Source: an uncultured Verrucomicrobiae bacterium
GTDB lineage: Bacteria > Verrucomicrobiota > Verrucomicrobiia > Opitutales > JABDGR01
Length of the DNA: 64,000 nucleotides
NCBI GenBank assembly: GCA_963765205.1
Contig: CAVXVB010000005.1
Location: 320,001-384,000 of the forward strand
Direction of reading: 5' to 3'
Below, piece after piece: positions 23,482 through 32,106 of the stretch (the stretch's first letter is position 1; each line of letters starts with the position of its first letter). The position numbers were made by a program, and so were the translations under genes. The notes under the pieces were generated by a model, which did no database searches, was not told the DNA's origin, and saw nothing but the letters and a program-made list of their open reading frames with translations.

Positions 23482-23799
23482 TGGTTTTTATTTCGGCTTA
23501 CCCATCAAGAGCTTGCGGGTTTGATATCGCAAATTGCGATATCAAAGGGTAGTGTATCAGTTTGGTGCAGCCTCGTTGAATTCGTAGCCCAATCCGGGCT
23601 TACGGCGGGGTCTAACTAAACGGCCCCTGCCTCGAAAAATAGCTAAGTCGGATGCGCCGCGGAGGCGTGAATGACTTGATGTTTTCGGGATGCGGTGGGC
23701 TGTGGATGTTGGCCAAAGGTTAATCCACCCATCCACTTTTGCAAAACAAAATCATCTTTGTGTTGGCCCTTGCAGTGTGCTGCCTGGGACTTCGCCTAA

Positions 23800-24189
23800 T
23801 TACTTGGATGGATTCAGGGGAGGGTCGGATGGAGAACTTGGAGGCTTGGGCGCGTTATTGGAATTATCGCGTGAACGAGGAAACAGCCATGCGAGCATCG
23901 CAATTACGGTCGCCACAATCGCCACCAGCAATGCCGCCGAAGCCAGTTTTGTTGATTTCTTCGACTCCCCCAAGGCGCTTTTTGAAATTCGAGTTGCCTC
24001 TGCTCCTTGAACAAGAGCCTGTTGGTGGCGGCTTTCACTTTCAGCATCTTCCATTTCGGCGAGTAATTGCACAGCCGCAATATGCTGTGGAGAGTGGGGA
24101 ACGTAGGTATTTCTTATCTCTAACAATTGACCCTTTGTTTTTTTTGAAAAAAAACGACGGTGGGTCTGAATATCAGGATCGGAAAGCAT
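23800..24189 (-). CDS. Hypothetical protein with C-terminal TM helix (IS passenger)
   Basis: Helical region, then LASAALLVAIVATVIAMLAWLF and a Pro-rich tail. Confidence 0.55.
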   Translation of the reverse strand: MLSDPDIQTHRRFFSKKTKGQLLEIRNTYVPHSPQHIAAVQLLAEMEDAESESRHQQALVQGAEATRISKSALGESKKSTKLASAALLVAIVATVIAMLAWLFPRSRDNSNNAPKPPSSPSDPPLNPSK

Positions 24190-24241
24190 TTGGAAATTAG
24201 TAGGCCACTATGCACCCTCCCGCAAATTAAATCCACCCCCT

Positions 24242-25084
24242 TCATGCGGCCTTTTCTTGAGCGTCCAGCGAACCGATAACCTCACTCATTTCCCAAACGT
24301 GGTCACTCAACCCTGATTCCATCGCCGGGGTCACCCGCAAAGTCTGGTGAATCCGGCAGAAATTATGAAACATAAAATAAATCGCCAGTTGGTGCTCGTG
24401 ATGCTCGATTTTCTTGCTGAACGCATTGGTCAGGCGCGTGAATCGGCGGTTGTGCATCCTGATGTTCAGGTTTTGCCGTTCGGCGTAGGACGTGGAGACG
24501 TGGGCAAACTCCGGGTTGCCGCTGATTTCAACCTTCTTGGCCCCCATGCACTGGGCGGGGCTGTAGCGCGTCTCCGGCGTCTCTGGGCCGTTGCCGTATA
24601 TCTTTTGCAGCATGGCGTAATCAATCTCCGCGCCAAAGGCATCCTCTACCGCCGTCAGGTAGGCCTTATGCCCGTCCGTGGTCAGTTGCACGCGATTGGC
24701 GAGCCTTCCCGCCAGATCGTGCATGAAGTGGTAGGCCGCGCCCGCGTCGCGCGTGCCGACATACCAGCAGGGAATCAGCTTGGTATCGGCATCCAAGGCC
24801 GTCCAAGTCCAGCAATCACCTTCGCCCCGCGCCTTCTTTTCGGCGGTCACGACCTTCTCCTTACAGCCCACAAAACTCCAAATCTCATCGCATTGGAGCC
24901 GCTTGCATTTGAGGTTCCGAAACGCCTTGTCCTGATACTCCGCGCAGGCCGGCCCAAGCTCGCACAACAGCTTTTTGACCGTGTTGATGGACACGTTGCA
25001 AAGCCGGGTGGTGGCCCGCATGGACATACTCTCGACCAGGCAGGATGCAATCTGCGCCCGCTTCTCTGTGGTTAATTGATTCAT
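24242..25084 (-). CDS. IS1 family DDE transposase
   Basis: N-terminal HTH SMRATTRLCNVSINTV; QCDEIWSFV, LTTDGHKAY, STSYAERQNLNIR, RRFTRLTNAFSKK, TPAM. Confidence 0.93.
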   Translation of the reverse strand: MNQLTTEKRAQIASCLVESMSMRATTRLCNVSINTVKKLLCELGPACAEYQDKAFRNLKCKRLQCDEIWSFVGCKEKVVTAEKKARGEGDCWTWTALDADTKLIPCWYVGTRDAGAAYHFMHDLAGRLANRVQLTTDGHKAYLTAVEDAFGAEIDYAMLQKIYGNGPETPETRYSPAQCMGAKKVEISGNPEFAHVSTSYAERQNLNIRMHNRRFTRLTNAFSKKIEHHEHQLAIYFMFHNFCRIHQTLRVTPAMESGLSDHVWEMSEVIGSLDAQEKAA

Positions 25085-25262
25085 GCCGCCAATATGACAC
25101 GAAATGCCTAAGCTGTCAACTATTATTTTTGAGAAAAAAGCGTGCGAATGGCCTAGGAGGGCCGCTGCACCGTATTTGCTCACGCAATTTCCTTGGGGCC
25201 GGAGTCTGGCAACGCAATTCTGGACATCGGGACTTCCGTGTATAGATTGGATTCCCAGGACG

Positions 25263-26189
25263 ATGCCACATTTAGGCGAATATGAAAGGCTGCTTCAATC
25301 GGTTTTCTTTCTTTATGAAAGCGAAGGCGATGCGTTTTGCGGCAATCATCAGGGGGGAACCGGATTTTTGGTGGCCCTTCCGGCGGATTGCGGAAGTATA
25401 AGCAGTAAGCATCATTTTTATGGCGTCACCAATTACCATTTAGCGCATGAAGGATACCCGGTCATTCGACTAAACAAAGAAGATGGAACGCCCGACATAC
25501 TTCCACTTACAAAAGATGACTGGCATTATGATCCCATGGGTTGCGATTTGGCGGTTACTCCCCTATCGCTTTATACAGGCCATAAAGTTGCTCCGCTAAC
25601 CCCAGACTGGTTTGTAACAAAGGAAGATTTGGAGAACAAAAGGACGGGGGTGGGCTTGGGCGAAGATGTCTTTATGGCCGGAAGATTTGTGGATTATGAC
25701 GGGACGGAAGACAATCAGCCCTCCCTAAGATTTGGGCATCTCAGTATTATGCACGCCCCGATTGAACAAAAAACGCCATGGAAACCCCGTAACCCCTCCC
25801 ATGTAATAGACCTACACAGTCGAAGCGGTTATTCAGGAAGCCCGGTGTTTGTTTACCATACGCCGGGTTCAATCTTACCGCAGTCGGACACCACTCAAGC
25901 CGCGCATACGAAAAGCATTCTTGTGCTTGGAGGGGATAGCGCCTGGGTCAAGCTCTTAGGGATTCACTGGGGCCAATTTCCTGAACAGTGGCAAATAGAG
26001 AAAGGTGACGCACGAGCGGAGGGAGCACTGGTGAGGGAGGGCGAGTATGTAAATGGATTAAGCGGCATGACACTTGTAATTCCTGCCGCTGAAATCTTGA
26101 AGCTATTAAAAACCCCAAAACTGGAGGAAATGCGCGAAAAAATAGAAATCCAATGGCTGAAAGAATACAAAAAGACTGGCATATTATGA
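25263..26189 (+). CDS. Trypsin-like serine protease (IS passenger)
   Basis: GTGFLV, VTNYH (His), DLAV (Asp), GYSGSPVF (Ser), LLGIHWG; no signal peptide. Confidence 0.8.
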   Translation: MPHLGEYERLLQSVFFLYESEGDAFCGNHQGGTGFLVALPADCGSISSKHHFYGVTNYHLAHEGYPVIRLNKEDGTPDILPLTKDDWHYDPMGCDLAVTPLSLYTGHKVAPLTPDWFVTKEDLENKRTGVGLGEDVFMAGRFVDYDGTEDNQPSLRFGHLSIMHAPIEQKTPWKPRNPSHVIDLHSRSGYSGSPVFVYHTPGSILPQSDTTQAAHTKSILVLGGDSAWVKLLGIHWGQFPEQWQIEKGDARAEGALVREGEYVNGLSGMTLVIPAAEILKLLKTPKLEEMREKIEIQWLKEYKKTGIL

Positions 26190-26193
26190 TCGC

Positions 26194-26475
26194 TCAATCC
26201 TTTTTTCCCCACCGTATAGCCGCCCCTTTTTTTCCAATCTCCCGTTTCGCCGCTTCCGACAACACCCTAGCCCTAGCCGGGCCACCCTTCAAACCACCCA
26301 ACCTCCCCAACATGACCGCCGCCGGATTCTTCCCCGCCAGCTTGGCTCGCGCCGCTTCCTCGCGCTCGCGGTATATGGCCGCAACCCCTTTCGGGATAAA
26401 CTCGCCGTGGGTAGCCTGGGCGACGACAAGCCCGGCAATCTGGTTCATGTCCAGTCTGGTTGAACGCTTAGGCAT
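26194..26475 (-). CDS. Small basic protein (KNPAAVxLGRLGGLKGG type), putative DNA-binding regulator of the IS
   Basis: KNPAAVMLGRLGGLKGGPARARVLSEAAKREIGKKGAAIRW; TTGAGT-17-TATCTT promoter. Confidence 0.75.
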   Translation of the reverse strand: MPKRSTRLDMNQIAGLVVAQATHGEFIPKGVAAIYREREEAARAKLAGKNPAAVMLGRLGGLKGGPARARVLSEAAKREIGKKGAAIRWGKKD

Positions 26476-26591
26476 GGCCGCAAGATACGCCCGGCACACT
26501 TAAAACTCAAACTCAAAAACGATTTATGAAATCCAAACTGATACACTACCTATCAAAGAAGGGCCATGGCGCATTTTGCGGCAAAGGCCTT

Positions 26592-26672
26592 TTTCGTAGC
26601 GCTGAGCTCCAGCCAGCGCTTCTTCGGGATTCGCGCAGCCCAGAGCGCTGGCTGAAGCTCAGTGCTACGAAA
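26592..26672. repeat. REP-like 29-bp inverted repeat pair
   Basis: tttcgtagcgctgagctccagccagcgct ... agcgctggctgaagctcagtgctacgaaa (2 mismatches). Confidence 0.7.
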
Positions 26673-26779
26673 TTGAGTCACAACCGAACCTCGCGACGGA
26701 GCATCATACCCTTATCAAAAACCATGACAAATGGAAATTGCCTTTTCAAAATTGCCGCATGGATGGGGGGATCAACGAA

Positions 26780-30194: not shown

Positions 30195-31154
30195 TCAGGT
30201 CCGGAACTGTTTTTTCCGCTCCAAAAGCTGCAACTGTGCTTCGTATTCTTCTTGGTGCCCGTTGGCTTCGTAGGCAAAGAAATCCTCGCCGTTCATTCCG
30301 GGATACAGGGCCGCCAATTTGGAGATAGATTTCACGGCCATCCGATAGTAGTCGGGGTCAATTTCGATGCCAATCGCCTGATGTCCCAGGGCCACCGCCG
30401 CCGCAATTGTCGAACCCGAACCCATGAATGGGTCGAGGATGACGCCTTCGCCCAACGGGAGAAGCGCGCGGATAAAAATTCGAAGCAGGTGTTGCGGTTT
30501 GAGCGAGGGATGATCGGCAATGGCACGCTCTCTGGCCGGGGTCTTGAAGCTCGGGATCACGTCGGGCAGCGGTTTTTCTCCCGCCAACATGCGCAAGCCG
30601 CCGGTGCCCCATTTGCGCAAATTTTGGGCCACGGTCCGCTCGGAAATCGGTTTGCGGAAGAGCATCCACGGTTCGTAATTGCCGCGCGGGGTGACGCAGA
30701 CTTGCGGGAATTCCGATTCCGCGTTTTTCGGCCGGTCGCCTCCGCGAAACCCATGATAAAGACGCAAAATGGTCGCCCGGCTTTCAAAGCCTTCCCGCAC
30801 CAGTGCGTTTTGCACATACATTTGCAGGGTGGAGTTGCTGGCAATCAACAAATGGCCGCCGGGCCTGATTTTCGGCCCCAGCACATGCGCCCACTGGTGG
30901 AAAAAATCCTCAATGGCTTGCTTTTGCTCCGCGGTCAGGATCGTAAAGCGGGGCAACGGGCGGCGTTTACAGCCATCCCAATCGGGTGGCAGCCGCCAAA
31001 TTCCCCCTTTGCCCTGCCGCAATTTCACCACCTCCTCGGCGGAAAATTCGACGAGGCCGTAGGGCGGATCGGTGCAGACTGCGTGCAAGGAGTCCGCCTC
31101 GAGCAAGCGGATGTGCTCCAGGCACTCGCCGAGGATTAATTTGGGAAAAGTCAT
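30195..31154 (-). CDS. Site-specific DNA methyltransferase (N4C/N6A, beta class)
   Basis: TDPPY (motif IV) N-terminal; HPSLKP and ILDPFMGSGST (motif I) C-terminal. Confidence 0.92.
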   Translation of the reverse strand: MTFPKLILGECLEHIRLLEADSLHAVCTDPPYGLVEFSAEEVVKLRQGKGGIWRLPPDWDGCKRRPLPRFTILTAEQKQAIEDFFHQWAHVLGPKIRPGGHLLIASNSTLQMYVQNALVREGFESRATILRLYHGFRGGDRPKNAESEFPQVCVTPRGNYEPWMLFRKPISERTVAQNLRKWGTGGLRMLAGEKPLPDVIPSFKTPARERAIADHPSLKPQHLLRIFIRALLPLGEGVILDPFMGSGSTIAAAVALGHQAIGIEIDPDYYRMAVKSISKLAALYPGMNGEDFFAYEANGHQEEYEAQLQLLERKKQFRT

Positions 31155-31155
31155 A

Positions 31156-31173
31156 TTTCAACTATAGTTGAAA
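31156..31173. promoter_or_regulatory. Perfect 18-bp palindrome (C-box-like operator) overlapping the MTase -10 box
   Basis: TTTCAACTATAGTTGAAA; minus-strand TTGACA-18-TATAGT promoter. Confidence 0.7.
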
Positions 31174-31212
31174 GACAAGCAGGCTGTCAACTGATAGAAT
31201 CCACGTTTTTCC

Positions 31213-32106
31213 ATGGAAGCCAAGTCCGCAATCGGAGCCACCATTCGCCAGTTGCGCGAAGCCGCGGACCTATCGCAAGAGCGCCTGGCGGAACGCGCCG
31301 GCATCACCTATCAATATCTTTCCGCGGTCGAAAACGGCAAAGAAAACCTTTCCCTCGGCATCCTGGAGGCCTTGGCCAATGGACTGGGTTTGAGCCTGCC
31401 GGCCTTGGTGGAGCGCGCATTTGAGTCGCCGCGCATGATGCCATTGGTTCAGCGGCAATTTTTCATTGAGAAGGCTCCTTTACCGCCGCGCTTGACCATA
31501 TCGGGCGTGGAAGCTGCCTTGAATGAGACCCACAAAATCATCCGGCTCATCAATACGACCCTGACCAAGGTGGCTGAACGGCCGCTGTCAGCCTACATCC
31601 AGGGGAATAATTTTAGCGGAATTGTTTCCAACATCCTTTGCGATGCTTTGTCGCGGCTCACGCCCTATAAGCACAATCATGACCAACGCTATCCCGATCT
31701 CGTCTGTAAAACGGACAAAGGGAGCACGGTGGCCGGGTTGGAAATCAAAACCACCATTCGCCCGGGCAAGGGCGGCGAAAGCCATAATGGACATTCCGGC
31801 TGGCACATGGTGGCCTGTTTTTCGCTGGACAAGACGTTGGGCGACATTCGATTCATCCACATCATGTTCGCGGAGTTGATCGGCCACGGCAAACCCAAGG
31901 CGGACTGGAAATATGTTGGGAGCAAAGTCAACGAGGACACGGGAAGTCAGCGGACGGAGACTTACACAACCACCCCGGCGGGCACGGCCAAGCTAAGACA
32001 CGGCACCGTTTATCTGGATACGTCCATCATAAATGTTGCCCGCTGGCGCACTGATTCATCATTGCCAGCGCCAGTCTATTCGCCGTTCCGTAAAAACCAA
32101 AAATAA
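31213..32106 (+). CDS. XRE/controller HTH fused to a putative PD-(D/E)xK restriction endonuclease
   Basis: LSQERLAERAGITYQYLSAVENGKENLSL; YPDLVCK...GLEIKTT; divergent from the MTase. Confidence 0.75.
   Translation: MEAKSAIGATIRQLREAADLSQERLAERAGITYQYLSAVENGKENLSLGILEALANGLGLSLPALVERAFESPRMMPLVQRQFFIEKAPLPPRLTISGVEAALNETHKIIRLINTTLTKVAERPLSAYIQGNNFSGIVSNILCDALSRLTPYKHNHDQRYPDLVCKTDKGSTVAGLEIKTTIRPGKGGESHNGHSGWHMVACFSLDKTLGDIRFIHIMFAELIGHGKPKADWKYVGSKVNEDTGSQRTETYTTTPAGTAKLRHGTVYLDTSIINVARWRTDSSLPAPVYSPFRKNQK

Follow-up and report, generated by a model that had tools for sequence, protein, structure and literature searches.

Transporter insertion sequences (tIS) are derivatives of insertion sequences (IS) that carry passenger genes, such as the IS1595-family tISCpe8 and MTnSag1/tISSag10 in the accessible text of the sources (PMC5704250, PMC9330008). 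The IS1 element of E. coli is far more compact: according to the available text, its 768 bp encode the repressor InsA and, through a -1 frameshift at an A6C motif, InsAB', and a zinc finger is present (PMC12428005). A third type of behavior is displayed by TnGBS/ISLre2 and ISKra4: their insertions lie 15-17 bp ahead of the -35 boxes of sigma-A promoters, in both orientations when their inverted repeats (IRs) are near-perfect, and a contact with RNA polymerase has been proposed (PMC3942029). Here we describe a 3003-bp element located at 23548..26550 of a 64,000-nucleotide stretch (the window) of contig CAVXVB010000005.1 from an uncultured Verrucomicrobiae bacterium. It is, with good confidence, an intact and probably recent tIS belonging to a widespread IS1-family lineage, in which a two-gene backbone is combined with two exchangeable cargo slots and, likely, self-repression. 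The terminal inverted repeats (TIRs), the target site duplication (TSD) and the four open reading frames (ORFs) are as follows:

23540..23547 (no strand): TSD TATCAAAG, left copy, recognized by its sequence match to the right copy
23548..23565 (+ strand): 18-bp TIR at the 3' end of the transposase gene, a 100% inverted repeat of the GGTAGTG...TTTG type, as in related elements
23800..24189 (- strand): 129-aa single-pass membrane protein, downstream-slot passenger, from an unnamed small family with 77 representatives
24242..25084 (- strand): single-ORF IS1-family DDE transposase of 280 aa, uninterrupted, with an N-terminal helix-turn-helix (HTH) and D66/D137/E202
25263..26189 (+ strand): 308-aa signal-less chymotrypsin-fold serine protease, upstream-slot passenger, with H59, D95 and S191
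26194..26475 (- strand): core gene for a 93-aa basic protein of the KNPAAV...GGxxRA...RW type, isoelectric point 11, predicted repressor
26533..26550 (- strand): 18-bp TIR at the basic-gene end, forming an inverted repeat pair with the left TIR
26551..26558 (no strand): TSD TATCAAAG, right copy, recognized by its sequence match to the left copy

The two arms (23548-23565 and 26533-26550) are complementary at 18/18 positions and TATCAAAG is present at both borders, in agreement with the perfect TIRs and 8-bp TSD that the initial annotation reported for this unit. The four ORFs that it listed (a DDE transposase, a protease on the opposite strand, a transmembrane (TM) ORF and a basic ORF) are also all present, and the passenger genes lie within a single TIR pair, as in a tIS. 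In the host genome (4.02 Mb, 12 contigs), the exact 18-mer TIR occurs twice, at the two ends of this element. The GC content of the element is 52% as against about 60% for the genome, and its read depth equals that of the flanks. Contigs from run X1, possibly the source sample, span the left and right junctions, and a contig from run X2, a second sample of the same study, spans the left one.

The transposase scores above the Pfam PF03400 (DDE_Tnp_IS1) cut-off (29.5 vs 24.1 bits), and its best NCBIfam match is also IS1, yet below the cut-off (60 vs 100). Across 35 relatives, D137 and E202 never vary and D66 hardly does, and the earlier assignment to the IS1 family is upheld. Members of this family have TIRs that begin with GG and TSDs of 8-9 bp. 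The lineage shows the DDE triad together with such ends and duplications. Mutator-type models, which are included in the Pfam and NCBIfam libraries, give no match to the transposase at E up to 1. The protein lacks a CxxC zinc finger in its first 60 residues and its gene has no A6C slippery site; the 3003-bp single-ORF element thus departs from the canonical IS1 arrangement (768 bp, insA/insB with an A6C frameshift, zinc finger). The nearest relatives (55-77% identity) are nearly all found in Verrucomicrobia records, and 3/4 plasmid relatives (57-60% identity) are annotated as "IS1 family transposase." The host genome also contains a more distant intact transposase (43%; C9:674859-675692), several decayed fragments of the transposase gene (tnp) and about 20 further TIR-like ends without a partner.

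A genome scan for related transposases yields 52 loci, of which 32 have a TIR pair and an 8-9 bp TSD; the element set was widened with relatives, one viral contig and four alphaproteobacterial plasmids. Of the resulting set, 45 elements have a near-full transposase; these are 2.2-4.2 kb long and carry 44 distinct cargo sets. Their 113 cargo ORFs of at least 100 aa, which were chosen mechanically and hence include some spurious ones, fall into 82 clusters and occupy both sides of tnp in 30/45 elements, as expected from the earlier proposal of slots on either side of the transposase gene. Pfam names among the 86 cargo ORFs scanned include Xre-ImmA, Fic, P63C, Panacea, PIN, NYN and ClpP, as well as SDH protease, proteasome subunit, MqsA, SecB and dCTP deaminase; no resistance cargo is seen in the lineage. 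L017 and L021 have near-identical transposases and different cargo, and the sister elements L026/L030 and L038/L039 (in a quick lineage tree, built without bootstrap) likewise differ. Moreover, an MqsA/SecB triple occupies the upstream slot in L010 and the downstream slot in L026, while the protease lies upstream here and downstream in L128. The inference of cargo exchange in the initial annotation is right because sister elements differ and the same cassette is found in either slot.

The fourth ORF had been listed as a passenger. Its presence and KNPAAV type stand, but its passenger status does not: 45/48 elements keep all or half of the gene, which makes it a backbone gene. Both halves are found in one ORF in 31 of the 48, the N-half only in 5 and neither in 3; 5 have the C-half only by threshold (3 stand-alone end genes, 2 P63C fusions) and 4 have an N-half plus a C-half fused to P63C. 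The automatic database name of the protein is "histone H1," and Pfam holds no family for it. A different ORF of about 100 aa (M..AxRxxLLR...) recurs near one end in L007, L026, L030, L032 and L043, elements mostly without a full basic gene; the four copies scanned have no Pfam match. Alignment of upstream regions brings out the following predicted sites:

25091..25119 (- strand): predicted tnp promoter TTGACA-17-CATATT, 6 nt from its end to the ATG and likely leaderless, from the upstream-region alignment
25104..25123 (- strand): predicted operator 1, over the tnp -35 box, 12/16 to ATGCTTGA-N4-TCAAGCAT
26456..26475 (- strand): predicted operator 2, at the 5' end of the basic-gene coding sequence, 12/16 to ATGCTTGA-N4-TCAAGCAT

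A -10-like core lies 6 nt ahead of the tnp ATG in 30/44 elements, and a Shine-Dalgarno-like motif precedes 2/44 tnp genes and 0/30 basic genes; both genes are likely read from leaderless promoters. The two operators match each other at 15/17 positions as an inverted repeat. The underlying 20-bp palindrome, ATGCTTGA-N4-TCAAGCAT, was found by aligning upstream regions, and a hit is defined as at least 12/16. Hits are concentrated in tnp promoters (26 in 3.2 kb) and left ends (19 in 6.1 kb), compared with 9 in 136 kb elsewhere and 72 in the 4.02-Mb host genome (0.018 per kb). The palindrome is present on both backbone promoters, and its occurrence follows that of the basic-protein C-terminal half. 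It is found at the tnp promoter in 26/33 elements with a full gene, a count that is partly circular because these promoters also supplied the consensus, which was derived by eye, and in 0/6 elements with a P63C fusion and 0/7 without a C-half. At the left end, with ATG positions excluded, the figures are 22/30 vs 0/14, and three sister pairs agree with this pattern in their operator scores (15 vs 8, 11 vs 8, 10 vs 7). The site is found in two registers, offset by 10 bp, and is therefore more than a -35 box. In 15/15 basic genes, the first Ser of the MPKRS start is encoded by TCA, compared with a TCA usage of 14.7%.

A palindrome that lies on both backbone promoters and co-occurs with the basic gene is the arrangement expected of a repressor and its operator, and the simplest interpretation of these sequences is that the basic protein is likely a repressor standing in for InsA. 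Seven elements that have TIRs and tnp but no basic C-half reach operator scores of only 7-10 of 16, which argues against binding of the palindrome by the transposase or a host regulator. This alternative, in which the basic protein is instead nucleoid-like, a KGG-type stress protein or a transposition cofactor, is quite unlikely. It can appeal to the HTH of the transposase, to the TTGA that occurs within the operator half-site and at the inner TIR end alike, and to a fold search with the basic-protein model in which no DNA-binding fold is recognized (best Z 4.0). However, the palindrome type is common to Verrucomicrobia and alphaproteobacterial elements, and no more than 6 sites in the host genome reach 13/16 or better, two of them at other IS ends. 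The P63C cargo proteins of L012, L016, L022, L026, L028 and L036 have the basic-protein C-terminal motif at their own N-terminus, and this fused motif goes with variant palindromes, suggesting that the motif is a portable DNA-binding module. Among the literature matches listed, none describes DNA binding by the GGxxRA...RW motif. Additional operator-like sites lie about 283-295 bp upstream of tnp in L032, L034 and L158, possibly at cargo promoters.

The lineage also appears to favor a particular type of insertion site. The target motif is a TTG hexamer with at least 4/6 matches to TTGACA that reads away from the element, at an offset fixed ahead of the count; in the present copy it is:

23527..23532 (- strand): target hexamer TTGCGA (4/6 to TTGACA), 7 bp past the TSD and outside the element

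Such a hexamer starts exactly 7 bp past the 8-bp TSD in 27/46 elements (23/46 at 5/6 matches), while other offsets have a mean of 1.1 and a maximum of 4. The insertion is thereby placed 15 bp upstream of a -35-like hexamer, a spacing like that of p-MULT 3/4. With the duplicate L154 dropped, the motif is found in 21/34 and 6/12 elements of the two subsets, and it is divided almost evenly between the two sides of the element (15 vs 14). A -10 core follows the hexamer at 16-18 bp on 13/29 sides, as against 13-16% in three controls. Three elements (L015, L035, L043) are inserted exactly 8 bp from another lineage end and form a second target class, resembling circle-junction formation.

The fixed TTGAC spacing could also reflect a transposase that recognizes an IR-like sequence, or survivor bias, rather than promoter targeting. 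Positions 15-18 of the TIR read TTGA, a shift of one base from the target-hexamer position when counted from the far TSD edge, and both the second target class and the 16/29 sides on which the -10 core is missing fit this explanation. Survivor bias alone, however, cannot account for a single preferred offset (27 cases, against at most 4 at any other), and in true IR-adjacent insertions the TTGA lies 7 bp farther out than it does in the promoter class. With the -10 cores enriched about three-fold and a spacing equal to the value given for TnGBS/ISLre2/ISKra4 in the available text (PMC3942029), we regard this explanation as rather unlikely and retain promoter targeting. The basic protein shows no association as a targeting factor, the target being present in 19/33 elements with a full basic gene vs 8/13 without. 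The same target rule applies to 0/5 IS1595 protease elements by inspection. In the present copy, the element is inserted at the edge of a 27-bp palindrome (23520-23546, 13-bp perfect arms) that contains TTGCGA and is flanked by two convergent genes, one PhyH-like and one SPFH. No description of an IS1-family element that targets promoters was found in the literature searched, to which the Siguier papers and ISfinder did not belong, and an earlier description is possible.

The upstream-slot passenger is, judging from its structure model, a chymotrypsin-fold serine protease with predicted catalysis. An alignment of 104 sequences (832 relatives were found) shows no variation at H59, D95 or S191, and the N-terminus is not hydrophobic, consistent with the His/Asp/Ser motifs and lack of a signal peptide noted earlier. 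The suggested structure prediction returned a model (predicted local distance difference test, pLDDT, 85) that resembles the DegS/HtrA and 3C folds (E ~1e-6), and the His-Asp-Ser triad, the G-x-S-G motif and the two-barrel fold are those of the PA clan. Pfam Trypsin_2 remains under its cut-off (20.7 vs 27.6), and no solved structure is related by sequence at E below 0.05. The PADLOC model PDC-S45 gives a weak match (21.7 bits, E 2e-5, model positions 34-224 of 293), and 7 relatives score 35-52 bits. The start site adopted here is preceded by the following feature:

25221-25248 (+ strand): promoter-like site before the protease gene, from the promoter scan

Starts at 25104 or 25176 were rejected: the upstream frame is no better than shuffles (169/500 at least as high) and the promoter-like site would fall within the extension, though 55/103 relatives are N-terminally extended.

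The carriers of this protease were surveyed in the best 80 of 218 confirmed metagenome loci, which form 62 groups at 90% identity. A convergent IS1595 transposase adjoins the gene in 31/62 groups, or in 27/47 of those with at least 600 bp downstream, and five IS1595-type protease elements show TIRs and a TSD. One locus, L128, lies inside the IS1 lineage with the protease in the opposite slot; several others are near integrases and the remainder have unrelated neighbors. Only the IS1595 transposase and the integrase recur as neighbor families in more than two loci, and in L128 and the IS1595 elements the protease is the sole gene of its slot. No match was found in phage records, and plasmid records hold one (28%). 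The protease looks like a partner-less passenger. A solo stress or anti-phage effector would be its likeliest role, the weak PDC-S45 match being its single link to defense. Among the protease relatives L053-L132, a recurring C-terminal tail (NPxHxEDF... or ...MLxTPP) goes together with an adjacent IS1595 transposase (16/27 vs 3/20), as if cargo ORFs ran into carrier-derived sequence.

The downstream-slot passenger has one strong helix, from residue 85, and no Pfam or NCBIfam family above cut-off. A three-sequence profile recovers 77 representatives, which, together with third-codon-position changes relative to a copy on contig C9 (9/14 over the helix, 13/26 over the N-terminal part), indicates a real gene. 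An antisense ORF (23739-24200, + strand, 153 aa) with a hydrophobic N-terminus has no homologue at E up to 1, and changes over the shared helix favor the minus-strand frame; it was rejected as a shadow. A residual signal persists in its first 20 codons (5 synonymous changes vs 0-1 in other frames), and its C9 counterpart is open, with frame-preserving indels. For P0121, a relative of the membrane protein, no match in viral contigs was confirmed. The C9 copy belongs to a sibling element (L169, C9:1383328-1384855) of 1528 bp with perfect TIRs and an 8-bp TSD, which carries a basic gene (81%) and the TM-ORF homologue (40%), no transposase and no protease. It is inserted 7 bp from TTGACT, and would be mobilized in trans. 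The sibling also contains a 149-aa ORF without a Pfam match, by eye like the C-terminal part of a proteasome-like cargo protein.

The initial annotation tentatively joined the protease and the membrane protein into a defense or addiction module. In such a two-part module, the protease would cleave and activate the membrane protein or be restrained by it. Bacteria do have protease-activated membrane effectors. The two genes share one element, the protease lacks a signal peptide, its likeness to PDC-S45 (weak) points to defense, and toxin-antitoxin-type and Abi-like cargo is common across the lineage. Yet the hidden Markov model (HMM) of the TM family finds 0/80 protease loci, and the protease HMM has no match in the C9 sibling or in L175, a locus with a TM-family gene and no lineage TIR nearby. 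Here the two genes lie in separate slots on opposite strands with tnp between them, and the solitary position of the protease in L128 and the IS1595 elements, like its narrow set of recurring neighbors, also speaks against a partner. In the samples analyzed, protease and TM ORF occur together nowhere else, an outcome that the initial annotation itself had listed as counting against its proposal, and 70 transposase loci contain neither family. A rare linkage may exist, because only 23/62 protease groups have at least 1.5 kb on both sides. The module is very improbable; the two proteins appear to be independent passengers and their pairing looks incidental.

Taken together, these features suggest the following cycle. 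The basic protein, as a dimer on the palindrome, would keep tnp expression low and autoregulate at its own start, replacing the InsA/frameshift control that the element lacks. On escape from repression, the transposase would act on and join the TIR ends and insert the element, in either orientation, 15 bp upstream of a sigma-70 -35 box, so that the promoter of the host is spared; targeting may occur either through RNA polymerase contact or through direct reading of TTGAC by the transposase. Passengers would be gained and lost independently in the two slots, the protease being a presumably active, partner-less cytoplasmic enzyme that is passed between IS1595, IS1 and integrase elements. A bolder version, which we put forward tentatively and at less than even odds, is that this IS1-family lineage has independently evolved RNA-polymerase-guided, safe-harbor insertion ahead of sigma-70 promoters and a new class of tiny repressor in place of InsA and the frameshift, and serves as a two-slot shuttle for single-gene effectors, including a hitherto undescribed family of partner-less cytoplasmic proteases that are possibly anti-phage on their own.

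Several observations weigh against the overall interpretation of the element as a tIS with self-repression and promoter targeting. The insertion is probably recent, and the earlier claim to that effect is plausible given the perfect TIRs and TSD and the intact ORFs, but the empty site is missing: none of the relatives among 40 genomes has both flanks together, no empty-site joint is found among the matches listed from 4 sequencing runs, and the search yielded no RNA holder among the matches listed. The operators of the present copy are weak (12/16 each), related elements are not independent in the operator counts, and the loss of the left-end site may follow the loss of the gene that it overlaps. 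The six P63C-fusion elements score below 12/16, with variant palindromes at a promoter shared with tnp, and the structure model of the basic protein is poor (predicted template modeling score, pTM, 0.36). As for the target, the motif is missing in 19/46 elements, the present copy is a weak case (hexamer 4/6, poor -10), and preferential survival of insertions at intergenic sites could account for the -10 enrichment. Finally, the protease-locus counts rest on the best 80 of the 218 loci, and their short flanks limit the co-occurrence test.

Outside the element, an imperfect hairpin repeat of about 80 bp lies to the right (26587-26679) and resembles repetitive extragenic palindromes (REP) or miniature inverted-repeat transposable elements (MITE). 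At least 5 further copies occur in the host genome and several in relatives; it has no Rfam family, and no RNA family scores near its gathering threshold. Two neighboring ORFs at 30195-32106 look, by eye, like genes for a DNA methyltransferase and for a restriction-like protein fused to an HTH.

Within the literature searched, promoter-directed transposition in bacteria is described only for Mutator-like elements, and its mechanism is proposed rather than shown in the accessible text. An IS1-family enzyme of 280 aa with the same spacing would offer a small, tractable model and a case of convergence. A common unannotated motif, that of the basic protein, also gains a specific predicted DNA site; if this holds, GGxxRA...RW would represent a new class of DNA-binding repressor that is mis-annotated as "histone H1" and is also fused to P63C. 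The cargo of the lineage, in turn, is a catalogue of stand-alone toxin-antitoxin, protease and defense candidates in the little-studied Verrucomicrobia.

In 2009, Siguier et al. reportedly grouped some passenger-carrying members of the IS1 family, with GGnnnTG ends, around ISMhu11. The present lineage is possibly part of that group and may already be listed in ISfinder. In the literature searched, again without the Siguier papers and ISfinder, no report was found of a repressor/operator pair of this separate kind, of an IS1-family enzyme with this promoter spacing or of one protease family carried by both IS1 and IS1595 elements. The protease shares fold and triad with chymotrypsin-fold proteases of the PDZ-less kind (DegS/HtrA domain, 3C) and has neither a signal peptide nor a PDZ domain. 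A true PDC-S45 member scores E 1e-94 in the accessible text, where PDC-S45 is termed hypothetical (PMC12429752); the likeness of the present protease to this candidate is a weak HMM match of 21.7 bits.

As a tIS, the element combines one DDE transposase with passengers in a single TIR pair and an 8-bp duplication. It differs from tISCpe8 and MTnSag1 in its IS1-family enzyme, its two high-turnover slots, its small core gene with an operator pair and the lack of resistance cargo in the copies seen. With canonical IS1 it shares the PF03400 family, the HTH and DDE domains and, as predicted here, repression by a small element-encoded protein; by contrast, it is 3 kb long, with a single tnp ORF and no zinc finger or A6C site. 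Unlike InsA, the predicted repressor is encoded by a separate gene 1.1 kb away, has no InsA family match and would act at an internal palindrome instead of the IR. Like TnGBS/ISLre2 (p-MULT 3) and ISKra4 (p-MULT 4), as far as the available text describes them, the lineage often inserts upstream of -35-like hexamers in both orientations. The targeting habit looks convergent, because the transposases of those elements are Mutator-like while that of the present lineage belongs to the IS1 family.

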